A stretch of DNA of 48,000 nucleotides from Myxacorys chilensis ATA2-1-KO14 (GTDB lineage: Bacteria > Cyanobacteriota > Cyanobacteriia > Leptolyngbyales > Leptolyngbyaceae). Shown piece after piece: positions 14,215 to 44,335 of the stretch; positions within the stretch are counted from its first letter, which is position 1, and each line of letters starts with the position of its first letter. Location of the stretch: assembly GCA_019359275.1 (NCBI GenBank), contig JAHHHP010000034.1, forward strand, positions 1 to 48,000, given 5' to 3'. Below the pieces are notes generated by a model. It ran no database searches. It saw nothing but the letters and a program-made list of their open reading frames with translations, and was not told the origin of the DNA. The position numbers and the translations under genes were made by a program.

Positions 14215-14240
14215 GGCTTGCGTAATGTAAACCTGCATGA

Positions 14241-16045: not shown

Positions 16046-16069
16046 GTTCGTAATCTAAACCTATGCGCC

Positions 16070-16973: not shown

Positions 16974-17006
16974 GTCATTCTCTCTTTTGCAACACCCGAA
17001 TTCGAA

Positions 17007-18564: not shown

Positions 18565-18599
18565 GTGTGATCGATAGACACTAGATTCCTAGGTTCTCG

Positions 18600-19643: not shown

Positions 19644-19656
19644 ACATTACACTAGC

Positions 19657-21265: not shown

Positions 21266-24200
21266 ATGAGCATCAACCTTCATGAGAATGGGGTAATTGC
21301 TGCACTTCTGCGCCACGCTGCGCGCAATCAGGACGCAATCGCCTTTCGGGTCGTTGATGGACAAGGCGAGGTAACCGAATTGCTTACCTATGGACAGCTT
21401 ACCCGGCGGGCTGGAGGCACAGCGGAGTGGATTACCCAGCAAACCCCACCGATGAGTCGGATTGTGCTAGCCCTGCCAACTGGCACTCAATTCCTTGTCG
21501 GGCTGTTTGGTACCTTGATGTCCGGCCGGACGGTCGTACCAGTGCTTGCGCCACGGCACCGTAGTTCGACCCGTTTTCTCTCAGTTCTGAACGACTGCAC
21601 TCCCAGTTTAGTTCTTGTGCCACCCGATGCTGTCAACGCTACAAGAGCCATCACGACGGTGGGTGAAATCAGAACGTTGGATGATGACCTAGTTGCAGAG
21701 CCCTGTCCAGAATTCGTCGAACCATCTGCGACGGCGGTCATTCAATATAGCAGTGGTAGTACTGGCAATCCCCGTGGGGTCTTAGTTAGGCATGAAAGCA
21801 TAGTAGCCAACAGTAAAATGATATCCGCTGTTTTCGGACACGATGTGGACTCCGACTTCGTAAATTGGTTACCGCTGTTTCATGACATGGGCCTTATCGG
21901 TGGCGTCATTCAGCCTGTAATGCTTGGATCTACCTGTACATTAATCCGCCCGGGCGACTTCGCGGCGCGCCCGCGGTTGTGGCTCGAGGTAGTTTCACGC
22001 TTTGGTGCCCACACGAGCGGCGGACCAGACGCAGCTTACCGACTTTGCACCCAAGCGATCGAAGATGGTGCTGTGGAGGGGCTAGATTTATCTCGCTGGC
22101 ACGTTGCGTTCAATGGTTCCGAGCGTGTCTACGAGACGACCTTGCGGAACTTTGCTGCGCGCTTTGCCCCAGCCAACTTCTCCTCCCGAGCATTTCTACC
22201 CTGCTATGGACTCGCCGAGGCAACTCTGCTAGTTTCTGGCGCCGCCTGGAAACCCGACCAGCTAGCACATCGTTTCGACCGGGCAGCGTTAGAGAGAGGA
22301 GAAGCGGTACCTGCAGCCGTTGGAATTGAGTGTATGGCGCTCGGGGCTCCTGCCCCAGGACTTGAGTTGGCTATCGTCAAGCCGAATCAGGGAACATCCC
22401 TGCCTCCAGGGCAGATCGGAGAAATTCGGGTGCGTGGCCCTAGCATATCAAGCGGCTATCACGGTAGACCACCAGATTGCATTGATGCGTGGAAAAGTAC
22501 CGCCGACTTGGGCTTTCTATACAAAGGAATTCTGCACGTTTTAGGGCGCTTAGACGATGTCATCATTCAATTCGGGCGAAATCTTTTTCCTGACGATATT
22601 GAGGCTGCAGCAGGTGCCGGATCAGCCGATCGAGGTTGCCGGATGGCTGCGGTTGACGTAGAGGGACAACTGAATCTCGTCGTCGAAGTCAGCAAGCGGC
22701 GTGAGCTAAATACCCTACAAGCTATGGCATCGGAGATGTCCGTCACGGTCAACACTACCCTGGAAGCAGTGGTGGATCGAGTCGTCTTTCTGCGTCGCGG
22801 TACGCTGCCCAGAACCTCCAGTGGGAAGATCCGGCGTTCAGCGGCGGCTCAGATGCTGCAGAAAGGCGAGGTGGATGTTCTCGCAGCTTTCACCCTGCTA
22901 GGTCCAGCAGGTAAAACCATAGCGGAGCGGGTATCCACCTTTTTGAATTTCTCAAGCACCGAACTCGATCGCCACATCAGTCTGGCAGCGTTGGGCTGCC
23001 AGTCCATGCAAGCCTTGGTTCTACGTCACGTGCTCGAACAGGATTATGGCCTTGCACTGCCAGCGGATCAGTGGCTGACCGACCTTTCGATTAATGAGAT
23101 AGAAGCTCTAATCGCTAGACAGAGCCAATTTGTGGTAGCCACTGAAAGCTGTATACCTCAACCCGATCCTCGTCTGCTAGTCCTGGCTCAATATGCTGCT
23201 GCCCCCGATATCGGTGCGCTTAACATTTCCTTTCTAGTGCATGCTGAAGGTCCAGACGTGGGTCCCCGTCTAGCTCGGGCCACAACTTCTGTAATTGGGC
23301 TGTATCCGGCCTTGCGACGTGCTCCTATTGCAGATGACTCTATTGCCGGCGGTATGCGCACTGTGGCCCGTGCGCCGGTGCAAGTCAAAGTCGTAATGAA
23401 CCCACCAGAGGCACTAGATGCCGAGATTCGGCGACCTTTCCGGTTGGAGCGAGAGGCACCATGTCGAGCGACGGTTTATGATCAAGGTGATCGAGCCACA
23501 CTGTTGCTAGTAATACATCATGCTGCTAGTGACCTTGTGTCGGGGGCGATTTTAGCGCGGCAACTAGCTCAGTCCTGGTCCGGGGTCCTGGTGAGTCGGG
23601 GTCCTGAGAGCCCAGACCAAATTGCGTTCATACCAGCCGCTGCGGTTGGCTATTGGCAAGCCCGTCTCACTGATCCACCGCCGATATTTAATGACAGTCG
23701 TCGTCTCAGCGCCGGTAACATGATCTCGGTCGTAGTCCCAATCCCTTCATCGGCACTACACCGTCGAGCACGTGCATTGAGAGCTACCGAGTTCGAGGTT
23801 TGCCTCGCCGCCTTTGCCCAAGCAACGGCACGTGTGTTTAGTCGTAAGCGTCTGGCGATCCTGACACCAGTCTCACAGCGCAAGGCAGATATGGAGGTAG
23901 TTGGCAATCATGTTTTGCCGGTTCCGATCTTTGTAGACGATGCCATGAGCGGCGATTTTGCAACACTGATATCCAATATTCGGGCGAGTTTGAGGCAGGG
24001 AACTCGGTACGGCGGTCTGCCCGCTGCAGTAAGCTTAACTGAACGTACGGCAGGTTCACTGTTTTTCGATTTCGCATTTGTGTGGCAGCAGATCCCCTCT
24101 GATGCGACAAACTCGCTCGCTGCTTTAACTCTGCCAAGCTTCGGTGCTTGTGCTAAATTCGGTGACCTTACTTTTGAGCGGCCTAGTTTTGCGTTCACAC

Positions 24201-26104: not shown

Positions 26105-29100
26105 TCGCCACCCGTTTCAGCAATGGCTGCTGCCAAATCAGACAACGAAATATCGGGCATATCGTCGTAAACCATCTGCGTCTCGGCTCCAGGTAGAATT
26201 TCTGCAATAGCATTCAGAGCCTTCATCATCCAGTCGCCAAGACGTTTGATTGTTGAGCGGTGGTGTACGGTATCAGAAAACTCTAGTCGCAGGTGCAGCT
26301 GCCCATCTTCGAGATAACCATCAATCTGTAGAAGATTCGGACGGACGTTTTCGGCACCGCTGAGTGGTCCAAGGTCGCAGGGTCGGAGGTTAAATAACCG
26401 ATCCCGCTCGACTGATCGTTCGATGTCCCCAAAGAAATTATAGGCTACGGCCGTAGTGCCGATCTTTCTAAGGCGTGCGCGAATTTCGGGATCAGGATGA
26501 TGCTCTGTCAGTAGCCCAAAAGTAATTCCAGCAGGCCCAGTGCGTGCTTGCTGTGTCACTACCATTACATCGGCAACTGGGTCCGGCATTTGTGATAGTA
26601 CGAAAGCGGCAGGCCAAGCTGCTGCGAACCAGCCAACCGAGCGCGATAGGTTGGCGCCCTTGCCATCAATGCCGTCACGACCAGAATCTTCAAGTGTTAG
26701 CGTATGCGCTGTTTGGCCAGTCCAATTCACGAGGGCGCGAAGCAAGGCAGCAAGAACGATTTGATCGAGTCCGGCCTTAAGACCGCGGCTAACTGGTCCG
26801 CGTAGGTGCTGAGTGGTCTTGGCGTTGAGCGTAAGCGGCAAGATAGCCGAGGATGCGCTCAGCCCATTGGTTACTCCAGGCAGGTCACGTGGCAGTTCCA
26901 CGACCGCCGGGTAGCCGAGCCAAGCATCTACCTGAGCTAACACACTCAGCTCAGCGGCCTTAGCCGCTAAGTCCTGGGCTGCACGAGTGAAGGGCATAAC
27001 TGGTAGCAGTCTTGGAGTTATCCCAGACTCAAGCGCTCGATAAGTGGTTTCGATATCCTGAACGATAATTTCCCAGGATACCTGATCCACCGCTAAATGA
27101 TGAGCAATCAGCGCAAGCGCTGGAGGTCTCCCGCTACTCCAATCAATGAGAGCTGCCCGCCACAGCTGCCCAGTGCTAATGTCCAAGGCTGCCTGCAGGG
27201 GTGCCAAACAGCTAGCAAGGCAGGCAGCTGTATGCGTGATCCGGTCAAGTGGGAGCATCGCAATGTTAGTTGACCGAGCCCTGCTACCATCAGGCGTGAA
27301 CATTAACCTGAGACCTTCGTGGCGGGCATGCACCAGTTCTAAGGACTGCTCTAACACCTCGGGGTTCAAAACTCGGTTTGTTTCCAACAGCAAAGCTTGG
27401 TTGAAATGATTCAGCATTGCCCCACCAGAGCGCAGTAGGTTTGCCTGTGCTGGCGTAGTCGGGGCATCGCCACAGCTTTTGATATCTAAATCAGAGGCTA
27501 CTGCGTCAGCACAAGCTTTTGCCAGCTCCGCAATAGTGCGACGCCGGAAAGCGTCCCCGGGCTTTAAAGTCAGACCTTCTGCTCGGGCACGTGCCACAAA
27601 CTGAATGACGATGATGGAGTCACCTCCAAGTTCGAAAAAATCATCATGCCGTCCGATCTTATCGATATGTAGCAGCTCTGACCAGAGTCTCGATATGGTG
27701 GTCTCAATCGTCCCTATAGGAGGCTCGAACGACTTCACGAGGTTGGGTCGCAGGTTACTAGGGTGAGGGAGAGCACGACGATCCAGCTTGCCGTGATGTG
27801 TATAGGGGATGGCCTTCATTCGCGTGAAACTGGTAGGGATCATGGCCTCGGGCAAGACACGTGATAGGTATTGCCGCAGATCCTGTTCCACGCTGCGGCT
27901 AAGTGCTGCGGCAAGAGGTGCATTGGTTAGTGGACTGTTTTGATTCGCTGGTGATGCTGGCACTTGATCCGCTGATGACACCGAGGACCGATTCGCTAGA
28001 GGCGCCGCCAGGGGATAAAGCTGTAGATCGAAGCGATCCGGACCACGATTACTCCAGTTCAATTCACACGCAAGGCCAAGGCTCTCCGCCCAGGAATGGA
28101 GAGCAGCTGGATCGTACCCTCCGGGATCGGTAGCAATTTGCAGATCCTGAAGAGTCTGGTTGGCGTCCGCAGCTTCCAGCCTAGCGACTGCAGCAACATC
28201 CCGGGCAACGCGACTATTAAGCAGACCGACTACACGAACCGGTGCATGAGCGGCGGCGGCGGCCAAGTCGGTGGAGGTGGGGTTTGAACCAATGTCGAGC
28301 TCAGCAACTGCTGTCGCTGTCGCTGTATCGAATGCAAGGACCACATCGTAGCGAAAACGTGTAAGCTCGTTGGCGTCCTGCGTCTTCTTGAGCTGCATTT
28401 CGACCCGACATAGCCGCGGCCAACGACTGCGTAACGACTCAAAGAATGCAGGGGCAATGAGCAACTCGCTTTCATAGTCACAGGCTATATCAAGCCGGGC
28501 TCGGAGATCTGTAGCTAGTGTGTTACCGCGGCTGACCTTCTCTAGGACTGATAAATGGAAACTACGCAGCAGCGACAGATTGCGGACATCCCCGAGAAAT
28601 ATTCGTCCACCTGTCTTCAGGACGGCGACTGCTTGATCAAGTACGGTGAGCAGATAATCGGCACTGGGAAAATATTGAACGGTCGAATTGAGTACGACTA
28701 AGTCGAACTGTCTCTCTGCAAGTCCCATGAAATCATGGGCTGGTTGACGTCGCAATTCAATCCTTGTACTACTGCCCATGGATGCAATCACCCTTCGGGA
28801 CAATTCTAAAGCGCGAGTCGAGACGTCGGTCGCTATGTAATTGAAAGTTTCTGGATCTCGAGCCAGTCCACCCAAAATCATTCCGGATCCGACGCCGATC
28901 TCGAGTACGTCCGCATGGGGCAAAGCGATCAGTCGTTTTAGCGTCGCATCCAACCAAGCTTGCATTTCCACTCGGGGTATGGGCTGACCATCATAGCTGT
29001 TGATCCAGGTAGCTATTTGAAGTCCGAACAGATCATGGTCGGTGAACGCTGGTACCGCCTCGTTATAGACATCCTGCCAATTGGCCAATCGGAGCGAGGA

Positions 29101-32100
29101 TTCCGCTTCAACACGCGCTTCTTGGGCAACCGCCTTATCGTCAATTACAAAGTAAGCTGCCAGTTTTCTGTTGCCAATTTCTTCACTAATGCTTACCGTG
29201 GCGTCTTTGACCAGGGGATGACGCTTGATAACAACCGCAACCTCCTCTAACTCGATGCGATGGCCGCGCAGCTTCACTTGGTTATCGATGCGCCCCAGAA
29301 ATTCCAGGGTGCCGCTAGGCGTAAGTCTCACTCGGTCGCCGGTTCGGTAGAGTCGTGCAGCGAGGTTTGCCGGATCTGGAATGAATGCTGCGGTGGTGCG
29401 CTCGGGGTCATTAATATAGCCTAAACCAACGCAATCGCCACTGATTAGTAGTTCACCTACTGCTCCCACGGGCGCCACTGTCCCATCGACTGTCCAGATA
29501 TGTAAGCGCGTGTTGGCGATAGGAGAGCCGATGGGTATGCGTGCCTGCTCCTCACCAGGCGGTGCGTTGATGACATAGTGCGCAACGTCATCGGAGCACT
29601 CCACCGGACCATACGCGTTGATCATTGGTATGTCCGGATATCGCGCAAGCCAACGACGGCATAGGTCGGGCTCTAACGCCTCGCCAGTGACTATCAGCCA
29701 GCGTAGCCTGGGTAGCGGAATCTCTGCTGAGGCTAAGTCTAACAGCGATCGCAAGAATGAAGGCACGACCTCCCAAACAGTCACGCCTGCAGCTGAGATC
29801 TGACGAATCAGTTCAGACGGGTTGCGTATTAGTTCGTCATCATAAATCTTGACCACTGCCCCTGCAACTAGGGGGGCGAGCACTTGCCACACGTAAATGT
29901 CGAAGGTTTCAGGGGACGTCTGGGCGACTACATCGACAGCTGTCAGTTTGAGAAGATCAATCTTCGCGGTCAAATGGTTGCGCATACCCCGATGACTAAC
30001 CATTGCGCCTTTGGGTGTTCCGGTGCTGCCTGAGGTGAAGCAAATATAGGCAGGTTCCGACACGGGAACCCCATTGAGTGGCCGTAATACAGGTTCGGCA
30101 AGCAGATGCTCGACAATCAGTACTGTGCCACAAGCTTCTGCAGAGATCGCTGCGGCAATCATGGCGCGAACAGAGTCGGCAAGGATGAAATCGCATTGCG
30201 CCTTAGTTACCATGGCAGCTGAACGAGCTACAGGAGCCGTGCCACCTAGCAGGATAAAAGTCGCGCCAGTGCGTAGGATAGCCAGTAGAGACAGTGGCAC
30301 AGCATAGGTTCGGTCCGCAAGTACCGCTACTGTCCGTCCGGGACCGACGCCCTGCTGTGTCAGGGATGCGGCAAGGTGGTCAATATCGAAGGCTAGATCC
30401 CTGTAGGTGCGTGTCGAACCTTCGCCGCTTATCGCAACAGCGTAAGGCGACTGTGCGACCTGCCCTTGAATTTGATCAATGATCGACCCTTGGTCTATCT
30501 TGCGGTCAGTCCCGATCAATGCCGGACTCCCGTCGCGAGAGCCTAGTTCCGACAACCGGGCCTGAGGCCTTGCTGAGACTTCATCCAGAAGCGCAACGAA
30601 TCTATCGCAGACGCCTGCAATGGTAGCAGGCTCAAACAGATCGGACCGGAACAGGGCTATACCCTCGATGGTACCTTGGCAACGTTGTAGATTAATTTCT
30701 AAATCGAGTCTAGCGATGCCATAATCAAGCGAGCACTGGGTCAGGCTAACCTCGTCTATCGTTCGTCGAAGCGGTTCACCCTCCTGTAAGGTAAGGGCTA
30801 TTTGAAATAGTGGGTGCAGTCCATATGGCCGACTGGGCTGCAGGAGTTTTGCCAGATAGTTCAGGGGCATTTCCTGATGATCGTAGGCGTCCGGAAGGTT
30901 ACGGCGGGCCTGCATTAGCAGATCGGCGAAGGATGGGTTCCCCGATAGGTCAAAACGCAGAGGAATTCGGTTTGCCGCAGACGCCACCAAGCGCCGGAAT
31001 GCTAAAGGTCGCGCTGCTGCGTCGCTCCCAAAAATCACGTCCTCGGCTCCGGTGTACATCCTTAATAGGACAGCAAAGGCGGTGGATAAAACCATGAATT
31101 CTGTGACCTTGGCAGCCTTTGAAAGGGTAACCAGGCGACTCGTTAATGTCGAGGATATGATGAAGCGATGAACTGCGCCATCACTTGTGCCAGCGGTCAA
31201 GCGAGAGTGGTCCGTTGTCAACGTGAACTCGAGGTTCGCGTCCTTCAGGGCTTTGGACCAAAAAAGTTCCATTTGGCTAAGTTTAGCAGTGGAAAGACGT
31301 TCAGCTTGATCCTGGATAAAGCTTCTGAGTGACGGCGCTGGCTCAAGGGTGGGCAATCGTCCGACCGCAAAAGCCTGGTAGGCAAGGATGAATTCCTCAA
31401 CCAGTATGGCCATCCCCCAGCCGTCACAAGCTACATGGTGTATGACCACCAGCAGTTGAAAGCGATCTGGTGCGCATGTGGCGAGAGTGAATCGTGCCGA
31501 TGGGGGGCAGGTCAAATCGAAAGGCTCGCGAGCGCGGGCCTTAAAAACCTCGAGCAATCTCTCGTTAGAGAACTCAGATGCATCTAAGTGATTGAGCACC
31601 ACATCCAAGGTGGACGCGATCCTTTGCCTAATTTCGCCATCCTTAGCAATGAAGCTGCAGCGCAAGGACTCGTGGCGGTTCACGATATAAGAGAGAGCTG
31701 AGGCAAGGGCAGCCGTGTTAAGCTGTCCGTTGAGTAACAACAACGCTGCATCGTTGAAGGTTGGGCTATTTGGAGAGATAGCGTGGCTAAGCCAAACCTG
31801 TTCTTGGGTTGGTGCCAGAGGCAATAGGGATTCGTTGTCCAAATTGTCCAACCTGCTGACTCTACTGTTCTGGGTCCTCTGATTCTCGCCCAGCCGAGCC
31901 AGCAAACTGGCAGGCGTAGGATTCTCAAACAAAGAACGCAGGGGCAAAGTCTCGTTGAACGCCTCCCCAACCCGAGCAATTAGTGTCACTGCGGAGATCG
32001 ATGTCCCACCTAGGGTGAAGAAGTCGTCATCTGGTTGAACCTCATTTAACTTCAGACACTCCCGCCACAGAGCCAGCATCTGATTGCATCTATTCGTAGA

Positions 32101-35100
32101 TAGTGCTGGCTTGAACTTCCCGGCAACCGACATTGCTGCTGTGTTCGTAATAGTGATCTGTGAGGGAATCAGACTAAAGGGGAGATGGCTAGCGAGGTGG
32201 GCGGCCACGTCCGTCGACGTGAGTTCGAAACCCGGAGTTGCCGTCACAATCAACGTCAGTTCCTCATTGTCGAACGCAGCCACAGCCCCCGCTACACCTG
32301 GCACGGATAGGGCGAGCGATTCGATCTCGCCCAGTTCTAGCCGACGTCCGGCAACCTTTACCTGTCGGTCAATACGTCCCAACCATTCCAGTTCCCCACT
32401 CGGTAGGCGCCGAACGCGGTCCCCCGTACGGTAGAGCCGTGACTCGCCAGCTCGGCTCACAAACCGCTCTGCCGTGCGCACTAGATCACCGACATAGCCG
32501 AGCGCTAGGCCCTTGCCAGCGAGACATAGTTCACCTATGTCTGCCAGTGATCCAGTGTTGTCCAGGATATGTACCCTCGTGTTACACAATGCCTGTCCGA
32601 GAGTCACACGCTCATCGCCTCGGCTTTGGTCAAATCCCGTAAAATCGGACGCCATGGACCAGATAGTCGCCTCGGTAGGACCGTACATGTTAAGAAGGCG
32701 TGCATCCGTCACGCCACTAAGGGCAGTCGCGAGGCTAGCCGATAGAGCCTCACCACCGACCATAATTGTGTCCAGCCTCGTAAGGGCAGCCTTCGTTGCA
32801 GAATCGCGTAGCAACATGGCTGCTATTGTTGGTGTGCATTGTAGGTGGCTGACACCGAAAGTCGCAATGTTCTCGGCAATCGAGAGGGCGATTCGCCTTG
32901 GTGCGATTTCTACTGGTGATGCAGCGGCACAGGCAGCGCGTACCCAGTCGAGGCGTTGGATACTTGTGATTACTCGGTCGAGATCAGTGTCAAAATCAAC
33001 AAGGCAAGCGATCTCGCCAACCCCAGCGTTCCAAAATGACCGAGCTCGGTCAATGCACACCGCTGCCTCTCCTACTAGTCCGCACGCACCGGAGAACCGC
33101 TGAAGTGAACGTTCGATTAACAGTTCGCGCCGATCTGTGATTTTGGGATTCAAGTCAGGCAAGTCATTTTCCGCCTCAGCGGTTGACAGGTCGAGATAGC
33201 GGCGAAGGGCAAGGCGAACTGCTGTTGCCTCGTCTTCACCTTCAGTCACGGCAGCGTGCAGCATCAGCACTACCCTGTCTGTGCGTCCACCATAAGCCCG
33301 GTAGCGAGCGATATGTTCACCCAAACTTTCTGGGGTCTGGGCAAGGAGGTGGGTTAGAACTCCAAGGTCCTCCCGTGCAGCTCTGTCCCAACGCGCAGCA
33401 TCACTGGCTATTGCCACCCACGTCTTGAGTTCGGGTGAAATCGGGCGGGGACGCAAGCTGAGATGTTCACCACTGCAACCAACCACCGTTCCGCCCCGCC
33501 AGAGGCGCCTGACTGTTTCAATGTCATCGAAGAACGCCTTCACGCGAGTATTAGGTTCACCATGTCCGAGAATCATAGCCCGAGCATCCCACCCTCGTGC
33601 GAAGGCTATTCCAGCCCGGCCATGGGACAGAACATCAATCTGAGCCCAGTCCTCCGCCACCCGAACCGGGTGATGAAGAGGCAGCGTAAGGCTGCCTGCG
33701 CGGATCTCGAGCCGAGTTGTGGATACTGCTAGAGCCGCGGCAGTCACGGATGGGTTGGGAAAGTCACCGCCGATTGCGCTGAAATGGCGTTCGGGAACCC
33801 AGACCGCCTTGAAGCCCAGATCATCAACAAGCTTTGCCAGATGAACCACCTGCTCCACACCGCCAGCTCCCGTTGGCGGAAAGCAGAACAGACTAAAGTC
33901 CGGCCCTTTGCCTCGCAGCGTTGCAGGTGTGCACGACGGCATCCACGTTTCCGGACCCTCCTGAAGCACGACGGTGCCACCATGCGTAAGTGGCCATAAA
34001 AGTTCCAGTAGTGAAATGTCAAAGCTGAGGCTAGAGAGGGCAAGGTAAATCGCTGGCTTATCAGGGGGACAAAGGACGTCGATTGCTGCCAGTAGGCTGG
34101 CCAAGTTGGACTGGCTAACCAGCACACCCTTAGGAGTGCCTGTACTTCCTGACGTGAACATTAAATAGGCAGGAGATTCCGGTTCTATAACCACAGGCGG
34201 AGACGGTTGAGCTGGATATGCCTGTGAAGCGAGCCTCACAGGGATGTCGGTTGATGGCAGCACTGGACCGTCAGTCTCAGTTAGAATCAGACCCGGTGCG
34301 GACTCGCGTAAAATTACAGCTAATCGGTCCCTCGGTGTAATCGGATCGACCGGAACAAAACAGTACCCTCGTCCTAGACAAGCCAGCACTGCCGCTACCA
34401 TTACTGGCTTGCGTGGCAGGGCTAAAACGACTCGGTCCCCTAGCTGTAGTCCAGCATCGTCCATTAAGCGGGATAAACCTTCAACCTCTTGCGCCAGGGT
34501 ATTATAAGTTGTTCGAGTGTCACGCCAACCTAGTGCTAGTGCTTGAGGATAAGACTCTGCTGCTGCAGCAAATCGTACGGCGACTAATGACGAGCGTACA
34601 GATGGGGAACCGCTATTTAGAGCCGGACCGTCAAACACCTCATTTGGAGTCTCAGATAACGACCTCAATGCCTGCTGATAGATCTGAGCGAGTTGAGCAG
34701 CGCCGGGGATCGTCTCAGACACCCGAAGGTTGAGTACTACCTGTTCGCTGAACGGGTCGATGGCGAAGTTTGCCGCAATCGGGAAACTCGAGACCTCATG
34801 GGTTCGAATCAACTCCAAGCGTATTTTAGCCTTATGCAAGAGACCTCGGACATTATGATAGTCAGTGAAATAAAAGAGAGCTTCGGGTCTTGATCCGCCT
34901 GCCTCAAGCATGGCAGCGAACGGAAAGCGGCGGTGGGGATAGTCAGCCAATTCTTCGGACATCAGAGCTTCAGCTAGCACTGCCCAGCTTACTCCAGCAG
35001 CAGCCTGCTGCATCGGCACAGTGTTAATGAAGAGACCTAGCATACGATGAGCGTTGGGTAGTTCAGGACGAACTCCGGTCACCACTGCTGTCACCGGCTC

Positions 35101-38100
35101 AGTTTCGCCAGTAACCTGTGCCAGCACTTTCATATGTGCTGCTAGTAGTAGGGTTTTGACAGGCAGCCGCCACGTTTTGGCTAAGTTGACGAGCGCACGT
35201 GACACATTAGCTGGAATCTCTACGGGTATGGTGAGCGTTGCGCTTCGCGCTGATGCGACAGGCCTTTGCTTACGATTGGCGAGCTTGCCAAGCCAGTAGT
35301 TGCAGCTCGACTTAGAAGCAAGGGCCAATTGTTCCATTTGGACAAATAGGGCCCCTCCGCGTAACAACGGTGTACATTCAGGTAACTTCTCATCGCGAAC
35401 CAGTGCGCAGTAATCCTCGAGCAATTCGCGCAGCATAGTAACATCGCTCCAGCCATCAATGACAGCATGATGGAACGACACGCCCAATAAGAAGCTATGC
35501 TCCCCTGTGATAATGACGTGGAGACGAACAAGGGGTGGGACAGTTAAGTTGAAGCCACGGTGGCGTTCGGCGGCAACCCAGGCATCCATTGCCGCTTCCT
35601 GCACTGCGGGTTCAGCAGCGCTAAGGTCGGACAGCGTCAATAGCGGTACTGGTTTCGCCCAAACTACTGCTAGAGGTGGATTCGCCCCCAAATCAAAGCA
35701 AGTGCGCAAAGCTGGATGCCGTATTGCCAAATGTTCTGCTGCTGCTGCTAGATTTTTGGCATTCGCAGGTGCCACGATGCGGTAGACGAACACGTCATGA
35801 TAGATGCCGATGTCCTTCGCCATTGCGTGCTCAAATATCATACCGATTTGCATGCTGGAGGCAGGAAAGGCATCTTCTGCCTCAGGAGCCACACGTCCTC
35901 GTTCTATTGAAGGAACTAGCGCGAAGGGTAGTGGCACCTGCAAAGGTTCGGTATTCATAGACCGTAACCTAGCCGCGTTCGCGATCCTTCTAATAGTGCG
36001 ATAGGCGAACAGATCGCGGACATCGAGGTTAAAGCCCATGTCCATGGCTCGAACAACAGTTTGAAGCGCTCGCATAGAATTGCCGCCGATTTCAATGAAA
36101 TCGTCGTCAATACCGACGCACTCTAGCTCCACCACTTCGGCTAACAATCTGCAGAGTGCTGCCTCGACAGCAGTACGCGGTAGAATAGAATCTTTCCGAG
36201 CATCGGGAAGATCGACCAGATCTCTAAGCGCATCGCGATCGATCTTTCCGGACATAGTTGTCGGTAGCTTAGCGAGAACAGAGAGGAATCCAGGCCTCAT
36301 CGGTATAGGTAGACGCTCGGATAATCTTTGACGCAGCACTTCAGTATCGAGTATTGCGCCGAGTATGGGCTCGACGAAGGCCACTAGCACGTTTCGGTGT
36401 GAAAGTATTATGGCAGCGTCGGCGACCCCAGCAATTTCGCGCAGCACACACTCAACCTCAGCAGGCTCAATGCGGCGACCATGTAGCTTGATCTGTCGAT
36501 CTACACGGCCCTCGAGAACTAGCACACCATCTGGTCGCAGTCTGGCAAGGTCACCGGATCGATAGAGCCGATGGGGCATGTGACCCTGCTGAAGATTCTC
36601 GATAAACCGTTCAGCGGTTATCTCAAGTGCATTCTGATAGTTCGCTACACCAGGTCCACCGATTAAGATCTCACCTCTCATGCCGATGGGGACAAAGCGT
36701 CTGCACTCGTCGACAAGGTGTAGGCTAGCACCAGCGCAGGGACGTCCGATGGGAATTACTGTTTCGTCACCTGTAGCGGCGAAGACGGTGCAACCTACTG
36801 TTGTCTCTGTAGGGCCGTATTCGTTCCATATTAGTGTTTTAGGAGCATGCTTTCGCCACGGCAAAATTAGGTCACCGCCCAAAACCTCCCCTCCCAGTAC
36901 AATAGTTCTTACTGCACCCGCAGGAGGAGTACCGTGCAGGCGGGCGTTAATGAGAGCAAACTGGCTTGGCGTTAGTTTCACCAGGCTTAGATCAGTGCGT
37001 TCTGTGAGTCGAGCAGCCAAATCCGCCAGTGGATCATCGAGGGCTGCCATAATCACACGTTGACCGACAACAAGCGGTGCGAGCAGAGTAGTGAGCGTCA
37101 GATCTACGGTAAGGCTCGACGATACAACGGCACCGTTGCCGCGCGCAATATGGTAGAAGTGCGCAGCCCAGACGCAGTAGTTCGCCAGCGCTGATTCCGG
37201 AACGATTACACCCTTCGGCCTTCCGGTCGTGCCGGAGGTGTAAAGAACATAAGCTGTATTCGCGGGAACCGAAGGCGACAGAGCCAATACTGGGGCAAAG
37301 CTGAGGGGCAGTCCCGTCTCCTGGTCCAGCAGAAGGCACGGCCTTCCCGCTAGATAGTCGGGAACAGCTAGTCCCCGATCTATGGCAATGACGAGCCCAG
37401 CTCTGACGTCGTCTAGCTGCCAAGCGATGCGGGCAGGTGGATCTTCTTCAGAAAGTGGTAGGAAGGCTGCGCCGGCCTTCAAGATACCTAGAATAGCAAT
37501 CAGAGCACAGACACTACGACCCATATACAAGGCGACAACTACACCCGGTCCGCCTCCCATCATTTTCAAGTTTGCGGCAATTGCAGTGGCTCTGGCGTCA
37601 AGCTGAGCGTAAGTAAGTTTGTATTGGGAATCCTCCACCGCAGATCGGTTGGGGTATTGTATGGCGGTCGTGGCGATGATTTGATGCAGAGGTTCAACTG
37701 AAGCAGCTATCACAGACTCCTGATTGAGCCGGTCTTGGTCCGCCTTCGCATGTTCAGGATTCCAGAAGGTGATGTTGAACAAGGGAGCGCCCGGGCTCGA
37801 CTTCATAGCGATGGCAAGGGTCTCGAGTTCCAGCACGAGCCTCTTGGCCATGGTGTGACTTATGCGTGTGCTATCGAATAAGATTCGAGCTTCGCATCGA
37901 TTCATATTCGGCGTAAGGCAGAGCTGGAGGAACCAGCGCTCGCTGCAATCCCACAAGGCGATCCGCTCCGCCTCACCGCCTGCTAGAGGCTGCAGTCCGG
38001 CAGGCGAGTGGCGCCGCAATCCGTAAGCAAGACCGTTGGTGCCGGCAGGCGGGGCTGCCAGACGTGGGAGAGCCCTATATGCCTCCGAGCAGGCAGCAAT

Positions 38101-38916
38101 CCAATCCCTACTAGTGACGCCATCACCGATGTCATACTTAGTTGCGGGAAGTGGACTGGCAAATGGACCCAGTACATCTGCAAACTCCGGTTCACCCCGC
38201 CCATCCCCCATCTCATGAATTGGTGCCTGACCATCACAAGTGTATCTTGATATAAGAAATGCCCAAGCTGCAGCGAGTGTGTCAGCGGTAATCTCGACAT
38301 TGATAGCTACGGTTTGTGGAGCATAGCGTCCGTGCCTTTGAGGTAAGCATAAGGAGAAATTTTCCGGCTCCGGTGTCTCATGAGCTGGACCAGTTGCGTC
38401 GTTGAGCCAAGGTACCACGTCGACGAACGCGGGACTTTGAGCTGGTCGGCCCTCGAGCCGCTCTAGGATTAGCTCCATGCTCTCTATATCAAGAAAGAGG
38501 GCTGAGCTGGCGATGACTAACCACCGCTTGGACTTGTTCTCAGCCAACCCAAAACCAATGCTCATGCCCCGATGACCTGCTGCAACTAAGAGAGCATTTG
38601 CCTGTCTCCTTAGCCACTTCTCGACGTTGTTCCTTGGCGATTGTATTCGTGTAAGCGAAAAGGCAACGTGCGGATTGATCACTTGGCGAGCTGGTTCACC
38701 AACAGGAGCTTCTATCCTTGAACGGAGCACTTCTTCTTCAGCAACAACACGGTTGAGGGCAGCTTCGAGAGTCGCTGCATGCACACCTTTCGAAAGCCTC
38801 CAAGCACCAGCTACCGCATATGGCGAGTCCCCAGATTCAGCACCTAGCTGCAGCAGACGGGCTTGGCGGTATGAGATCTCGAATCCGTCGGTCGGCTCAT
38901 ACAAGTTAGTTTCCAT
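26101..38916 (-). CDS. Tri-modular NRPS: C*(degenerate)-A-T-C-A(LLM insert)-T-C-A(N-MT insert)-T-E
   Basis: Three A domains ('VLYTSGTTGRPKG', 'LMFTSGSTGTPKG', 'ICFTSGSTGTPKG'). Three T sites ('GGNSM', 'GGTSI', 'GGDSI'). C motifs 'FHHAVIDGWS' and 'IHHVACDGWG'. Terminal E domain 'AHHLAVDQVSW'. The likely start is ATG 38916 ('METNLYEP'), overlapping the upstream gene by 11 nt. The ORF-track start is 38985. Confidence 0.95.
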   Translation of the reverse strand: METNLYEPTDGFEISYRQARLLQLGAESGDSPYAVAGAWRLSKGVHAATLEAALNRVVAEEEVLRSRIEAPVGEPARQVINPHVAFSLTRIQSPRNNVEKWLRRQANALLVAAGHRGMSIGFGLAENKSKRWLVIASSALFLDIESMELILERLEGRPAQSPAFVDVVPWLNDATGPAHETPEPENFSLCLPQRHGRYAPQTVAINVEITADTLAAAWAFLISRYTCDGQAPIHEMGDGRGEPEFADVLGPFASPLPATKYDIGDGVTSRDWIAACSEAYRALPRLAAPPAGTNGLAYGLRRHSPAGLQPLAGGEAERIALWDCSERWFLQLCLTPNMNRCEARILFDSTRISHTMAKRLVLELETLAIAMKSSPGAPLFNITFWNPEHAKADQDRLNQESVIAASVEPLHQIIATTAIQYPNRSAVEDSQYKLTYAQLDARATAIAANLKMMGGGPGVVVALYMGRSVCALIAILGILKAGAAFLPLSEEDPPARIAWQLDDVRAGLVIAIDRGLAVPDYLAGRPCLLLDQETGLPLSFAPVLALSPSVPANTAYVLYTSGTTGRPKGVIVPESALANYCVWAAHFYHIARGNGAVVSSSLTVDLTLTTLLAPLVVGQRVIMAALDDPLADLAARLTERTDLSLVKLTPSQFALINARLHGTPPAGAVRTIVLGGEVLGGDLILPWRKHAPKTLIWNEYGPTETTVGCTVFAATGDETVIPIGRPCAGASLHLVDECRRFVPIGMRGEILIGGPGVANYQNALEITAERFIENLQQGHMPHRLYRSGDLARLRPDGVLVLEGRVDRQIKLHGRRIEPAEVECVLREIAGVADAAIILSHRNVLVAFVEPILGAILDTEVLRQRLSERLPIPMRPGFLSVLAKLPTTMSGKIDRDALRDLVDLPDARKDSILPRTAVEAALCRLLAEVVELECVGIDDDFIEIGGNSMRALQTVVRAMDMGFNLDVRDLFAYRTIRRIANAARLRSMNTEPLQVPLPFALVPSIERGRVAPEAEDAFPASSMQIGMIFEHAMAKDIGIYHDVFVYRIVAPANAKNLAAAAEHLAIRHPALRTCFDLGANPPLAVVWAKPVPLLTLSDLSAAEPAVQEAAMDAWVAAERHRGFNLTVPPLVRLHVIITGEHSFLLGVSFHHAVIDGWSDVTMLRELLEDYCALVRDEKLPECTPLLRGGALFVQMEQLALASKSSCNYWLGKLANRKQRPVASARSATLTIPVEIPANVSRALVNLAKTWRLPVKTLLLAAHMKVLAQVTGETEPVTAVVTGVRPELPNAHRMLGLFINTVPMQQAAAGVSWAVLAEALMSEELADYPHRRFPFAAMLEAGGSRPEALFYFTDYHNVRGLLHKAKIRLELIRTHEVSSFPIAANFAIDPFSEQVVLNLRVSETIPGAAQLAQIYQQALRSLSETPNEVFDGPALNSGSPSVRSSLVAVRFAAAAESYPQALALGWRDTRTTYNTLAQEVEGLSRLMDDAGLQLGDRVVLALPRKPVMVAAVLACLGRGYCFVPVDPITPRDRLAVILRESAPGLILTETDGPVLPSTDIPVRLASQAYPAQPSPPVVIEPESPAYLMFTSGSTGTPKGVLVSQSNLASLLAAIDVLCPPDKPAIYLALSSLSFDISLLELLWPLTHGGTVVLQEGPETWMPSCTPATLRGKGPDFSLFCFPPTGAGGVEQVVHLAKLVDDLGFKAVWVPERHFSAIGGDFPNPSVTAAALAVSTTRLEIRAGSLTLPLHHPVRVAEDWAQIDVLSHGRAGIAFARGWDARAMILGHGEPNTRVKAFFDDIETVRRLWRGGTVVGCSGEHLSLRPRPISPELKTWVAIASDAARWDRAAREDLGVLTHLLAQTPESLGEHIARYRAYGGRTDRVVLMLHAAVTEGEDEATAVRLALRRYLDLSTAEAENDLPDLNPKITDRRELLIERSLQRFSGACGLVGEAAVCIDRARSFWNAGVGEIACLVDFDTDLDRVITSIQRLDWVRAACAAASPVEIAPRRIALSIAENIATFGVSHLQCTPTIAAMLLRDSATKAALTRLDTIMVGGEALSASLATALSGVTDARLLNMYGPTEATIWSMASDFTGFDQSRGDERVTLGQALCNTRVHILDNTGSLADIGELCLAGKGLALGYVGDLVRTAERFVSRAGESRLYRTGDRVRRLPSGELEWLGRIDRQVKVAGRRLELGEIESLALSVPGVAGAVAAFDNEELTLIVTATPGFELTSTDVAAHLASHLPFSLIPSQITITNTAAMSVAGKFKPALSTNRCNQMLALWRECLKLNEVQPDDDFFTLGGTSISAVTLIARVGEAFNETLPLRSLFENPTPASLLARLGENQRTQNSRVSRLDNLDNESLLPLAPTQEQVWLSHAISPNSPTFNDAALLLLNGQLNTAALASALSYIVNRHESLRCSFIAKDGEIRQRIASTLDVVLNHLDASEFSNERLLEVFKARAREPFDLTCPPSARFTLATCAPDRFQLLVVIHHVACDGWGMAILVEEFILAYQAFAVGRLPTLEPAPSLRSFIQDQAERLSTAKLSQMELFWSKALKDANLEFTLTTDHSRLTAGTSDGAVHRFIISSTLTSRLVTLSKAAKVTEFMVLSTAFAVLLRMYTGAEDVIFGSDAAARPLAFRRLVASAANRIPLRFDLSGNPSFADLLMQARRNLPDAYDHQEMPLNYLAKLLQPSRPYGLHPLFQIALTLQEGEPLRRTIDEVSLTQCSLDYGIARLDLEINLQRCQGTIEGIALFRSDLFEPATIAGVCDRFVALLDEVSARPQARLSELGSRDGSPALIGTDRKIDQGSIIDQIQGQVAQSPYAVAISGEGSTRTYRDLAFDIDHLAASLTQQGVGPGRTVAVLADRTYAVPLSLLAILRTGATFILLGGTAPVARSAAMVTKAQCDFILADSVRAMIAAAISAEACGTVLIVEHLLAEPVLRPLNGVPVSEPAYICFTSGSTGTPKGAMVSHRGMRNHLTAKIDLLKLTAVDVVAQTSPETFDIYVWQVLAPLVAGAVVKIYDDELIRNPSELIRQISAAGVTVWEVVPSFLRSLLDLASAEIPLPRLRWLIVTGEALEPDLCRRWLARYPDIPMINAYGPVECSDDVAHYVINAPPGEEQARIPIGSPIANTRLHIWTVDGTVAPVGAVGELLISGDCVGLGYINDPERTTAAFIPDPANLAARLYRTGDRVRLTPSGTLEFLGRIDNQVKLRGHRIELEEVAVVIKRHPLVKDATVSISEEIGNRKLAAYFVIDDKAVAQEARVEAESSLRLANWQDVYNEAVPAFTDHDLFGLQIATWINSYDGQPIPRVEMQAWLDATLKRLIALPHADVLEIGVGSGMILGGLARDPETFNYIATDVSTRALELSRRVIASMGSSTRIELRRQPAHDFMGLAERQFDLVVLNSTVQYFPSADYLLTVLDQAVAVLKTGGRIFLGDVRNLSLLRSFHLSVLEKVSRGNTLATDLRARLDIACDYESELLIAPAFFESLRSRWPRLCRVEMQLKKTQDANELTRFRYDVVLAFDTATATAVAELDIGSNPTSTDLAAAAAHAPVRVVGLLNSRVARDVAAVARLEAADANQTLQDLQIATDPGGYDPAALHSWAESLGLACELNWSNRGPDRFDLQLYPLAAPLANRSSVSSADQVPASPANQNSPLTNAPLAAALSRSVEQDLRQYLSRVLPEAMIPTSFTRMKAIPYTHHGKLDRRALPHPSNLRPNLVKSFEPPIGTIETTISRLWSELLHIDKIGRHDDFFELGGDSIIVIQFVARARAEGLTLKPGDAFRRRTIAELAKACADAVASDLDIKSCGDAPTTPAQANLLRSGGAMLNHFNQALLLETNRVLNPEVLEQSLELVHARHEGLRLMFTPDGSRARSTNIAMLPLDRITHTAACLASCLAPLQAALDISTGQLWRAALIDWSSGRPPALALIAHHLAVDQVSWEIIVQDIETTYRALESGITPRLLPVMPFTRAAQDLAAKAAELSVLAQVDAWLGYPAVVELPRDLPGVTNGLSASSAILPLTLNAKTTQHLRGPVSRGLKAGLDQIVLAALLRALVNWTGQTAHTLTLEDSGRDGIDGKGANLSRSVGWFAAAWPAAFVLSQMPDPVADVMVVTQQARTGPAGITFGLLTEHHPDPEIRARLRKIGTTAVAYNFFGDIERSVERDRLFNLRPCDLGPLSGAENVRPNLLQIDGYLEDGQLHLRLEFSDTVHHRSTIKRLGDWMMKALNAIAEILPGAETQMVYDDMPDISLSDLAAAIAETGGD
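26104..27483 (-). other. C-terminal epimerization domain (approximate bounds)
   Basis: The preceding T site is 'GGDSI'. E-type motifs: 'TTPAQANLL', 'HHLAVDQVSW', 'LEDSGRDG...LSRSVGWFAA', 'AYNFFGD'. Confidence 0.8.
27916..29118 (-). other. SAM-dependent N-methyltransferase domain inserted in A domain 3 between A8 and A9/A10 (approximate bounds)
   Basis: 'VLEIGVGSGMILGGLA' (28882-28908 region), 'DLVVLNSTVQYFPSADYLL', 'GGRIFLGDVRN'. Flanked by 'VKLRGHRIELEEV' and 'HGKLDRRAL'. Confidence 0.85.
32911..33918 (-). other. Luciferase-like (flavin-dependent) monooxygenase domain inserted in A domain 2 between cores A4 and A5 (approximate bounds)
   Basis: After 'SFDISLLELLWPL' (A4) come ~335 aa: 'GPDFSLFCFPP...LAKLVDDLGFKAVWVPERHFSAIGGDFPNPSVTAAALA...LRRYLD...'. 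The A domain then resumes with 'LQCTPT...MVGGEAL...NMYGPTEAT' (A5). Confidence 0.8.
37756..38916 (-). other. N-terminal condensation-like domain lacking the HHxxxDG motif (approximate bounds)
   Basis: C-like order: 'ISYRQARLLQL', 'LNRVVAEEEVLRSRI', then 'WLVIASSALFLDIESM' at the position of the catalytic motif. Confidence 0.55.
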
Positions 38917-41155
38917 CAGATAATTCCTGGCCCATAGCCACCCAGATTTGTCGGCTGCCCGTGAATGGCTCACGACCATGGGCAAACATCATGTTATCGA
39001 GCATTAGTAAGTCACCAGATTGCCACGAGAAAGCGATTCTGGTTTGCCAGTAGGCTGCTTCTACCGCGCGGATAGCAGCTATGTCAATCACTTCGCCATT
39101 TCCATAGAAAACGTCGAAGGGAAGAGTCTGTGCGATCGCTGGAGATAACCATTCTGATGCCACAACCGTCGGATGGAAGAAATGAGCATGGTTAAACCAC
39201 ACTAATTCGTTTGTCTCTGGGTGGGAACGAAGGGCAGGCCCATTACGCATAGTGATTAGGTGTCCATCTGCATCTCGCTCGACCCGGTAACCAGACTCTA
39301 CCAACAATGCTTCTAACGCCGCACCCTCGAAGCCGAAAACCTCTCGGGCAGTTTGACCCATGGGTCCGCTAAAGCGTCTGATATATTGCAGTCCGCGTCG
39401 CTCAAACGCCTCCCGAACTGTCGTTGGCAGGACAGCTAGAACGGCGCGGCTATCCGAGATCGGAGTGCGTCCGCCAGTAGAAGGCGGCTCCACACATAGA
39501 AAAGCTATCCATCGAGGCCAGCGAGATGCATAGGCATTCTCGTTATGTAGCGGGATTGGACGTGAGGACGGATAATCTGTGGACGTGTAGATTTGGTTTC
39601 CCAGCGACGTACGTGGAGATGATCGTTCTACGTATGGAACGAGCGGTCCGATCACTGTTTCAACTTCCGCGGCGAACGCCTGTGGATTCATGGGCGGCAG
39701 ACCCCGCACTAAAACTGCGCCAGTACGTCTAAGCATCTCTTGCAACTGAGTTGCGTGGTTGCTCAAGTTTGTGGAACCTACCACGCGCAGCGTGGCAATA
39801 GGTGAAGGAATTTTTGGCTCTGAGTCTTCTATCAGGCGGTCTACCATTACTAGCCGCCTGATAAAACGGGGACCGGGAGGTAGAGCCGAGCCCGTAACAC
39901 ACTCGGCAACATTCCTATACCTGTCCAACAACCGTTCGACTCGTTCGCGAGGTGCGCGCTTTGGATCGAATTCTGCCCGGCAGGTCAGCAGTCCACTTGA
40001 TAGACTAATATTAAGCAGAAGCGGGAACTTCGCCCCCGCGATCGATGTTTCTAAAGGCTCGACAGTCAGTCCAGCTAATCGAACAGCGGGAGTCATATTC
40101 TGCTCGAGTGAGAGTTTAACAGCGAAGAGCTCCTCAACGGGCGAGATGGCGGCTATCTCGTTGAACGAGAGATTTGCGTGGGATAGCGCACTGTTGACTG
40201 TAGTACGAAGGTTCTTAAGGCTCTGCTCGAATGGGCAGTGTGCCTTCTTCAAACGGATCGGAATCTGGCGAGCAAAGAAACCAATCAGACCTTCCATCCA
40301 AGGTTCAGTGCGCCCTGCAAAATCAATGCCGATTGTTGTCTCGACGGCACCGGTCTCCTCAAACAGCGCATCTTGCAGCACTGCGAGAAAAGCAATAAAA
40401 GGCGAACAATACTGGCTAGCAGCAAGACGTGTAAGGCTAGGGGCAAGTCTCGACCAATCCACGGTGATGCAGTCAAATGCCGGGTTTCCCGGTAACAGCG
40501 TACCGCCAAGGGGGCGCTGAGGCGCCTCCTTAACATCCTGTAGCTCCGACTGCCAAAACTTCAGGGTTGCGATGCGGCGAGGATCCTCTGTGTTGAACGA
40601 TGACCGGGCAAAGTCGGCAAATCCGCGTTCTGGGAGTGACAGTCCCGTTCCGCGTCCGTTGAGCAGGCTTTCATAAGCTAGACCAAGCTCGCGGAGGAAT
40701 ATACCGCGGGACCACCCATCGCAAACGATATGATGTGCAGCCGCACAGAAGACATGATCATCAGTTCCGAGCCGGTACAGCCCCGTGCGTGCGACAGGAC
40801 CTCTTTCCAAATCAAAGGGGTCCCCCGCGATATGTGTTAACCATGAGGATAGCGGCCCATTAAACTCATCCGCTATAGTGAACGGTAACACGCTACGATG
40901 AACCCGTTGCTCAAGACGCCCGGCAGCAAGATGGAAAGTCGAGCGTAGTGGTCCATGTCGATCAGCTACGGCACACACAGCCCTCTCCAGAGCATCAGTG
41001 TCGAGTGCTCCAACCAGACGCAGTGCGAGGCTCTCCACATAACTACCGGCAACTGGGTTACGTGCATAACCCAAGAACAAGCTCTGCTGGTCCGGAGTCG
41101 GCTCAAACCGATCCTCCAGCGTATCGTCGGTCCATGACGTGCTGGCATCCACCAT
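38906..41155 (-). CDS. Didomain protein: condensation domain + TauD/TfdA-family Fe(II)/2-oxoglutarate dioxygenase
   Basis: N-terminal part: 'PTPDQQSLFL', 'RHGPLRSTF', 'AAHHIVCDGWS'. C-terminal part: 'PLHNENAY' (HxE), 'GGRTPISDSRAVL', 'MLDNMMFAHGR'. It starts 3 nt after the MIO gene stop. Confidence 0.88.
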   Translation of the reverse strand: MVDASTSWTDDTLEDRFEPTPDQQSLFLGYARNPVAGSYVESLALRLVGALDTDALERAVCAVADRHGPLRSTFHLAAGRLEQRVHRSVLPFTIADEFNGPLSSWLTHIAGDPFDLERGPVARTGLYRLGTDDHVFCAAAHHIVCDGWSRGIFLRELGLAYESLLNGRGTGLSLPERGFADFARSSFNTEDPRRIATLKFWQSELQDVKEAPQRPLGGTLLPGNPAFDCITVDWSRLAPSLTRLAASQYCSPFIAFLAVLQDALFEETGAVETTIGIDFAGRTEPWMEGLIGFFARQIPIRLKKAHCPFEQSLKNLRTTVNSALSHANLSFNEIAAISPVEELFAVKLSLEQNMTPAVRLAGLTVEPLETSIAGAKFPLLLNISLSSGLLTCRAEFDPKRAPRERVERLLDRYRNVAECVTGSALPPGPRFIRRLVMVDRLIEDSEPKIPSPIATLRVVGSTNLSNHATQLQEMLRRTGAVLVRGLPPMNPQAFAAEVETVIGPLVPYVERSSPRTSLGNQIYTSTDYPSSRPIPLHNENAYASRWPRWIAFLCVEPPSTGGRTPISDSRAVLAVLPTTVREAFERRGLQYIRRFSGPMGQTAREVFGFEGAALEALLVESGYRVERDADGHLITMRNGPALRSHPETNELVWFNHAHFFHPTVVASEWLSPAIAQTLPFDVFYGNGEVIDIAAIRAVEAAYWQTRIAFSWQSGDLLMLDNMMFAHGREPFTGSRQIWVAMGQELSDGN
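38909..39793 (-). other. TauD-like hydroxylase domain (approximate bounds)
   Basis: Facial-triad candidates are H-N-E in 'PLHNENAY' and the distal His in 'FAHGREPF'. Confidence 0.75.
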
Positions 41156-44311: not shown

Positions 44312-44335
44312 TGAAATTCAGAACTGAGGTAGATC

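Follow-up and report, generated by a model that had tools for sequence, protein, structure and literature searches.

An internal glycine module with an embedded luciferase-like monooxygenase in a nonribosomal peptide synthetase of Myxacorys chilensis, with a possible role in forming a retained alpha-hydroxyglycine

The DNA analysed here, referred to as the window, is a stretch of 48,000 nucleotides from the cyanobacterium Myxacorys chilensis ATA2-1-KO14 (assembly GCA_019359275.1, contig JAHHHP010000034.1, positions 1 to 48,000). Its central open reading frame (ORF), 26101..38985 (-), encodes a single nonribosomal peptide synthetase (NRPS), for which gene callers begin at M24 and give a protein of 4271 aa. 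Residues are numbered from the start of the ORF, such that residue i begins at 38985-3(i-1). The domain order is C*-A(Asn)-T-C-A(Gly,MOx)-T-C-A(Dab/Dap,NMT)-T-E, where C, A, T and E are condensation, adenylation, carrier and epimerisation domains, C* is a degenerate C-like domain, NMT is an N-methyltransferase, Dab and Dap are diaminobutyrate and diaminopropionate, and MOx is a monooxygenase domain of the flavin mononucleotide (FMN)-dependent luciferase-like (LLM) type. The MOx domain and the parts of the NRPS that surround it are as follows, with the basis of each assignment in brackets.

32911-33918 (-): MOx, luciferase-like FMN monooxygenase domain, aa 1690-2025 (336 aa), within A domain 2 (TIGR04020, PF00296, 6KET, AlphaFold2, Foldseek)
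33919-34515 (-): A domain 2, N-terminal part, cores A1-A4 (motif scan, phmmer domain map)
32101-32910 (-): A domain 2, C-terminal part, cores A5-A10 (motif scan, specificity code)
31861-32100 (-): T2 carrier (LGGTSISA), presumed site of the hydroxylated glycyl thioester (PP-binding match, sequence)
30496-31845 (-): C3 condensation domain with an intact HHVACDG motif, which would pass the module-2 product on (Pfam Condensation, 237 bits; motif)
27481-30471 (-): module 3, with A3, a methyltransferase (28306-28995, VLEIGVGSG) after core A8, then T3 (domain match, code, sequence)
26104-27480 (-): C-terminal epimerisation domain E (HHLAVDQVSW; domain match, motif)
34546-38913 (-): upstream part of the NRPS, with the degenerate C-like domain, A1, T1 and C2 (HHAVIDG; codes, motifs)

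The identity of the MOx domain was assessed by profile, sequence and structure comparison. In Pfam, Bac_luciferase (PF00296) matches aa 1706-1989 with E=1.5e-37, and in NCBIfam the domain scores 277.1 bits against TIGR04020, the MupA/Atu3671 family of FMN-dependent LLMs, above the curated cutoff of 244.45 and over profile positions 21-340 of 341. The closest solved structure by sequence in the PDB is the Ox domain of PuwE, from the polyketide synthase (PKS)/NRPS of puwainaphycin (6KET, E=2.6e-58). An AlphaFold2 model of MOx, built with 43 homologues, shows a strand/helix alternation with a mean predicted local distance difference test (pLDDT) of 87.4 and a predicted TM score of 0.88, and a Foldseek search with this model again ranks 6KET first (TM 0.84), followed by RslO1 and luciferases. 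The reading frame is unbroken across the 336 codons. MOx is thus a genuine domain and not a chance match, with a predicted (beta/alpha)8 TIM-barrel fold of the LLM type. The motif scan places the cores of A domain 2 at aa 1612 (A3, SGSTGTPKG), aa 1655 (A4, FDISLLE), aa 2099 (A5, NMYGPTE) and aa 2185 (A7, YRTGD); since those at aa 1655 and aa 2099 bracket aa 1690-2025, MOx is inserted between A4 and A5. The initial annotation, made from the sequence alone, had described an LLM-type domain of ~335 aa at this site in A domain 2, and both the domain and its position are borne out.

Substrate codes were read from a MAFFT alignment of all A domains in the window to a GrsA-PheA reference segment, which reproduces the canonical numbering D235...C331; the amino acid for each code was assigned by comparison with codes from the literature. 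The A1 code, DLTKVGEVGK, is Asn-like, that of A3, DIWEITADDK, Dab/Dap-like, and that of A2, DILQMGMIWK, a code for glycine. It agrees at 8/10 positions with the Gly code DILQLGLIWK and at 9/10 with DILQLGMIWK, the commonest code among A(MOx) relatives, 14 independent members of which carry DILQMGMIWK exactly. The pattern DILQxGMxWK is present in essentially all of ~125 relatives with MOx between A4 and A5. Because nearly every relative with this insertion carries it, the Gly assignment is independently supported, and Gly activation and MOx form a fixed functional unit. The full 10-residue code thus substantiates a glycine specificity that had been hinted at from FDISLLE.

The module is internal, as originally noted: T2 is followed by C3, A3 with its methyltransferase, T3 and E, the core motifs of all these domains are intact, and the NRPS protein contains no thioesterase (TE); nor was one found elsewhere in the window. 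At the other end of the protein, the N-terminal C-like domain (37696-38913 (-), aa 25-430) reaches only 37 bits with Pfam Condensation, and SALFLDI stands where HHxxxDG would be expected. The His-His motif is also missing from the N-terminal C-like domain of two relatives described below, P0127 and P0130, which suggests that a non-catalytic or docking role of this domain is conserved.

The frequency of internal A(MOx) modules was assessed by an exhaustive HMMER search of 1.84 billion representative sequences with aa 1600-2110 (A3 through MOx to A5), which yielded 3669 proteins at E<1e-30. The best 150 of these were mapped by phmmer with the window's own domains as queries, and the window protein was left out of the counts, leaving 149 representatives. 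Relatives with MOx between A4 and A5 fall into these layouts:

58, plus 1 that is N-truncated: MOx module followed by T-C on the same polypeptide
69: protein ends just after T
6: a tail after T, TE-sized in ~4
10: truncated

Internal Gly-A(MOx)-T-C modules of the A4-A5 type therefore make up 59 of ~145 relatives (~40%) among the best 150 of 3669, a set skewed to resemble the internal query, so that its counts are not population frequencies. Four more relatives (P0148, P0167, P0176 and P0234) carry an LLM domain inserted after A8, with ~60 aa between it and T, and two of the four are internal (A-MOx-T-C). These counts show that the internal arrangement is common, and that the TE-terminated layout of MtaG and MelG, from the myxothiazol and melithiazol pathways, is a minority among close relatives. 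For the clusters of 20 representatives, organism names were obtained in a few cases (Pseudomonas, Myxococcus, Sorangium and several metagenome-assembled genomes, MAGs), and none of these was Dickeya. Word-index homologue searches returned mostly stand-alone LLMs or short fragments at no more than 42% identity, and the named MtaG, MelG and SolF were not among them. A candidate orthologue, P0121 (listed at "78%"), was rejected, as it is the window's own protein in a shorter gene call, 100% identical in every domain; P0338 is likewise the window's own protein. When the 805-aa A(MOx) stretch was searched for a close orthologue, genome contigs gave only a spurious 33% match in a Bifidobacteriaceae MAG, and metagenome contigs gave no match.

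Next after its own protein, the closest relatives of the window NRPS are P0127 (locus L005) and P0130 (locus L004, from Pseudomonas), and the 90% cluster of P0130 contains proteins of Pseudomonas orientalis, P. rhodesiae and Pseudomonas sp. 34 E 7. Strains of P. orientalis or P. rhodesiae have the cluster of WP_052448381.1 / WP_339434574.1. Identity to the window NRPS is 30-47% per domain. Both proteins nevertheless have the order x-A(DLTKVGEVG)-T-C-A(Gly,MOx)-T-C-A(DIWxxTADD,MT)-T-E (MT, methyltransferase), the same as in the window and with like A1 and A3 codes, and loci L004 and L005 have in common with the window an NRPS that begins with a fatty acyl-AMP ligase (FAAL-NRPS), an MIO-type lyase, a C-TauD protein, SbnA and SbnB. 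Because order and partners are the same at such low identity, the internal position of the Gly-MOx module appears to be conserved by selection, which argues that the module is functional in this position and has been kept over a large evolutionary distance. In the window, the partner genes are:

38906-41155 (-): C-like + TauD (iron/2-oxoglutarate-dependent hydroxylase) didomain protein, which adjoins the NRPS also in L004 and L005
41159-42721 (-): MIO-type aromatic amino acid ammonia-lyase/aminomutase, HAL-like, a conserved partner that is syntenic in L004 and L005
21266-26104 (+): FAAL-T-C-A-T lipo-initiation NRPS, A code DVCQFVVAAK, a conserved partner
18600-19643 (-): SbnB, L-2,3-diaminopropionate synthesis (TIGR03944, 391 bits, above equivalog cutoff)
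19657-20637 (-): SbnA, L-2,3-diaminopropionate synthesis (TIGR03945, 374 bits, above equivalog cutoff)

The genes of the C-TauD protein and the MIO-type lyase are immediately upstream of the NRPS. The MIO-type lyase scores 525 bits against the PRK09367 model for histidine ammonia-lyase, a score level with the cutoff, and the A code of the FAAL-NRPS is DVCQFVVAA in the window versus DVCQAVIAA in L004. The C-TauD protein is probably a beta-hydroxylase for the module-1 residue. From the shared domain order and codes, the predicted backbone of the family is FAAL-X, (OH)Asn, (OH)Gly, N-Me-D-Dab/Dap. Two product families were considered and dropped. The reported compositions and clusters of the cyanochelins (FAAL-NRPS with beta-OH-Asp) do not match, and a cluster of the edeine, paenilamicin or bleomycin type, suggested by the Dap, MIO and asparagine-synthase genes, found no supporting match. 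Locus L005 has additional genes (87-4988 and 22576-26724) for a Lys/Orn N-monooxygenase, an MbtH protein, an IucB-like acetyltransferase, a PvdQ-like penicillin amidase and an ABC exporter, and looks like a siderophore-like pathway with a removable fatty acyl group.

Several described systems can be compared with the window module. SolF of Dickeya solani (A-P-C-A-ox-P) has an internal Gly module, module 4, with an embedded flavin monooxygenase, and solanimycin B retains alpha-hydroxyglycine through many later elongation steps, hydroxylation being skipped in solanimycin A; the evidence on the products is tandem mass spectrometry (MS/MS) and isotope labelling, not in vitro work (PMC10204066). 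The window module has the same features, namely an internal Gly module, an embedded flavin monooxygenase and further elongation after it, although SolF belongs to a trans-acyltransferase PKS/NRPS hybrid cluster with other neighbours. The reported insertion sites are a8-a9 in SolF and a4-a5 in MtaG and MelG (PMC10204066). The relatives that carry an LLM of the same family after A8 match the SolF site, which makes homology of the window MOx with the SolF domain likely, though unproven. MtaG, MelG and FshJ (myxothiazol, melithiazol and fischerazole) end in C-A(MOx)-T-TE (PMC10204066, PMC11342130, PMC13548996). Compared by their published descriptions only, they resemble the window module in their Gly-specific A domain, in MOx between a4 and a5 and in the proposed alpha-hydroxylation of Gly, but differ in being terminal, followed by a TE and assigned a collapse of the carbinolamide to a terminal amide, whereas the window module is internal and lacks a TE. 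In Serratia and Pseudomonas, 38 corallorazine-like clusters, for which no products were given, have also been reported to have a Gly A2 domain with MOx (PMC11342130). The initial annotation had taken the terminal MtaG and MelG as the precedent; with SolF, these 38 clusters and the internal layout of ~40% of the ~145 relatives, the known range is wider than this.

Enzymes of the same TIGR04020 subfamily outside A domains also bear on the predicted chemistry. For the PuwE Ox domain, the assigned reaction is alpha-hydroxylation of a beta-amino acyl chain on its carrier (PMC4219810), and other in-line TIGR04020 domains have been assigned alpha-hydroxylation of a carrier-bound thioester with retention of the hydroxyl (PMC8739492). 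The LLMs of the puwainaphycin, microginin, palmerolide and onnamide pathways thus share with MOx the subfamily and a role on carrier-bound acyl thioesters. MOx is embedded in an A domain and its predicted substrate is a glycyl unit, whereas these domains lie between PKS/aminotransferase and NRPS parts and their substrates are beta-amino or polyketide acyl chains. Skyllamycin and the nyuzenamide/epoxinnamide group, which use stand-alone hydroxylases, are documented cases of alpha-hydroxyglycine that is retained, as is spergualin. Sky39 and EpcG (skyllamycin, epoxinnamide, nyuzenamide) likewise provide a retained (S)-alpha-hydroxyglycine within a nonribosomal peptide, although they are free-standing actinomycete enzymes that are not fused into an A domain. 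In peptide amidation, peptidyl-alpha-hydroxyglycine needs a dedicated lyase (PAL), and without the lyase of the PHM/PAL pair the collapse of N-acyl-alpha-hydroxyglycine is slow at neutral pH. It had been argued at the outset that release chemistry of the MtaG/MelG kind would abort an internal assembly line; this premise is not compelling, because alpha-hydroxyglycine is retained in known products, solanimycin B among them, and because a lyase is needed to cleave it.

On this basis a sequence of steps can be proposed for module 2. A domain 2 would activate glycine and load it onto T2, and C2 would transfer the lipo-aminoacyl-(hydroxy)Asn chain from upstream to the T2-bound glycine. With reduced FMN and O2, the LLM domain would then introduce a hydroxyl at the alpha-carbon of the N-acyl-glycyl thioester on T2. 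The carbinolamide so formed (alpha-hydroxyglycine) would not be released; instead, C3 would pass it to the N-methyl-Dab/Dap on T3, and it would stay in the chain. Substrate, timing after condensation, regiochemistry and hydroxyl retention are inferred here from the chemistry of the same LLM subfamily and from solanimycin B. Hydroxylation of free glycyl-S-T2 is unlikely, because a free hemiaminal would be expected to lose ammonia and would no longer be an acceptor for C2. We put the chances of this reading, alpha-hydroxylation of the T2-bound thioester with the residue carried forward, at about even. Of the two possibilities originally raised, a stable hydroxylated residue carried forward is thus favoured over an assembly line that is split at this point.

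Several observations weigh against a retained alpha-hydroxyglycine as the outcome in this organism, and most of them concern the window copy of MOx itself. Its conservation was examined in an alignment with 135 embedded relatives and in a second alignment of 196 members, which adds 60 stand-alone domains. Of the 91-92 positions with a conservation of 90% or more, the window copy matches 69-70, fewer than any other of the 136-196 members; the median is 90, and the clade-mates P0127 and P0130 each reach 87 (of 92). The two halves of the A domain around it score 30/35 and 41/44, equal to P0127 and P0130, and the difference in MOx conservation from P0130 is significant (Fisher p=3e-4). Likewise, the median identity of the window MOx to its relatives is 0.38 and that of the clade-mates 0.45-0.46, with no such difference in the A halves. 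Two of the changes fall at positions equivalent to flavin-pocket residues: V1767T lies at the site of LuxA V77, an FMN contact, and D1803A lies in the family motif GW(N/D)PxDF, in which the family consensus puts D at LuxA D113, by the isoalloxazine (a HMMER pairwise alignment moves the D113 match by one residue, the window motif being lost). F1804M adjoins D1803A, and the D-F of the motif is thereby lost. Domain residues 111-118, which span the GW(N/D)PxDF stretch, are the sole part of the AlphaFold2 model with pLDDT <50. In addition, the scan of ORFs of at least 150 aa turned up no recognisable flavin reductase gene; SolF, the internal analogue, is compared by description only and carries its insert at a8-a9 and not at a4-a5; and no product of the cluster family is described in the literature searched. 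The initial annotation had named an already characterised internal A-MOx module with a known product as something that would undercut its proposal. SolF largely provides one, qualified by its a8-a9 site and by product evidence limited to MS and isotopes.

These differences point to relaxed or altered constraint that is specific to MOx in the window lineage, although inactivity is not proven. On sequence grounds, the window MOx may thus be weakened or inactive, and the module would then insert glycine or give mostly non-hydroxylated product, as in solanimycin A. The sol system offers a parallel, in that its domain appears dispensable: the ~500-aa monooxygenase portion is missing in some Dickeya strains (PMC9765074). 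The divergence from the family at conserved sites, within an A domain as conserved as in the clade-mates, and the low model confidence exactly at the altered stretch fit this account. Against it, the frame is intact, TIGR04020 is matched above its curated cutoff, the model is confident overall, and every residue that is 100% invariant in the family is kept, including W1729, P1731, E1732, R1733, H1734, G1764, S1765, E1778, W1780, D1784, G1789, R1790, G1798 and W1799. Among these, E1732-R1733-H1734 align to LuxA E43-H44-H45 and G1764-S1765 to LuxA A74-A75, and the FMN contacts of LuxA in 3FGC include E43, A74 and A75 (PMC12648314). LLM membership, whose absence would have spoken against the original proposal, is borne out. 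For the conserved flavin-binding residues, which were named alongside it, the picture is mixed: the invariant ones are kept, but V1767T and D1803A depart from the family at flavin-pocket sites. Overall, we consider a weakened or dead MOx rather unlikely, though the likeliest of the alternatives to a carried-forward alpha-hydroxyglycine.

A different class of alternatives accepts hydroxylation and treats the alpha-hydroxyglycine as a programmed reactive site, at which the chain would either split into two products, the primary amide of a lipo-dipeptide and a peptide with a glyoxylyl cap, or form a 2-oxopiperazine aminal with the N-methyl-diamino acid; taken broadly, this is distinctly unlikely. 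In the split, carbinolamide collapse as in MtaG and MelG would free lipo-X-(OH)Asn-NH2, and the glyoxylyl-S-T2 left behind would prime modules 3 onward or be hydrolysed. Domain type, A4-A5 site and Gly code are all as reported for MtaG, MelG and FshJ, where the terminal amide model is accepted, and truncated linear products have been suggested for crz-like clusters with MOx (PMC11342130). However, no TE or other hydrolase follows T2, which is succeeded instead by an intact C3 and a full module; the order is shared with very remote relatives, and internal modules of this kind are common; and both the documented retention of alpha-hydroxyglycine and its slow collapse without a lyase argue for an unbroken chain. 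We therefore regard a functional split as improbable. Slightly less probable again is a transient electrophile, in which water loss would give an N-acyl-imine that is trapped by a nucleophile, and the product would contain a ring or ether and no free OH. One candidate nucleophile is the side-chain amine of the next residue, N-Me-Dap, which would give a 3-acylamino-2-oxopiperazine aminal. The next module does load a diamino acid (DIWEITADDK), all three clusters share SbnA/SbnB for Dap, and ring size and chemistry seem plausible; yet a dedicated cyclase could not be recognised, and such a motif is not known from any product tied to such a cluster.

Outside the shared genes, the window has a set of its own, comprising a pentapeptide-repeat protein, a glyoxalase-family protein, an asparagine-synthase homologue, free A-T, C-A-T-C and lone C proteins, and a phosphopantetheinyl transferase. 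The pentapeptide-repeat protein (283 aa) and the glyoxalase/bleomycin-resistance-family protein (115 aa), at 43460-44683 (+), adjoin the cluster and could be self-resistance genes; neither was found in the sequenced parts of the L004 and L005 relatives. A C-A-T-C protein with a Gly-like code (DIVQWGLIWK) and a stand-alone C protein lie at 5414-11364 (+), and a free A-T with the code DARHLAFMIK at 46571-48000 (+) runs past the window end. A pyridoxal phosphate (PLP) enzyme at 11893-12975 (+) scores 510 bits against a threo-3-hydroxy-L-aspartate ammonia-lyase model (cutoff 452) and may be linked to the beta-hydroxy residue attributed to TauD; a PALP gene of like size comes after SbnB in L004 (24910-25959).

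The NRPS region also contains other elements. An IS1-family transposase at 16291-16973 (+) consists of an InsA-like frame followed by an overlapping InsB-like frame, and by tblastn it most resembles copies on plasmids of cyanobacteria (Leptolyngbya boryana at 60%, then Gloeocapsa, Calothrix and Nostoc). GC content is 44-49% in the non-NRPS stretches (~11.4-21 kb) versus ~54% in the NRPS genes. The IS1 element and the drop in GC suggest that the cluster has been interrupted or rearranged in the cyanobacterial genome; a megablast of window 11400-21200 against plasmids gave no match. In the middle of the NRPS region lies a locus resembling those for ribosomally synthesised and post-translationally modified peptides. 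It encodes a radical SAM/SPASM peptide maturase at 14313-15653 (+), for which the best NCBIfam model is PapB-type, below cutoff, flanked by two paralogous ORFs at 13813-14214 (+) and 15653-16045 (+), of ~130 aa and ~80% identical, with the Cys/Gly-rich core CGGGCDAKGGACGAWC.

The window domain thus belongs to a known kind, Gly-A(MOx), and its internal context has a published functional analogue in SolF and many sequence relatives. For product prediction in M. chilensis it matters that this copy of MOx is possibly decaying. If a split or the trapping as an aminal were true, it would represent a new use of A(MOx) modules. The analysis also defines an orphan lipopeptide cluster family that is common to a cyanobacterium and to culturable Pseudomonas orientalis and P. 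rhodesiae, and the Pseudomonas homologue would offer a practical route to distinguish a retained from a cleaved alpha-hydroxyglycine for the A4-A5 type. More generally, internal Gly-A(MOx) modules emerge as a widespread and mostly unstudied class, in contrast to the textbook view of the A(MOx) module as a chain-terminating amide device.

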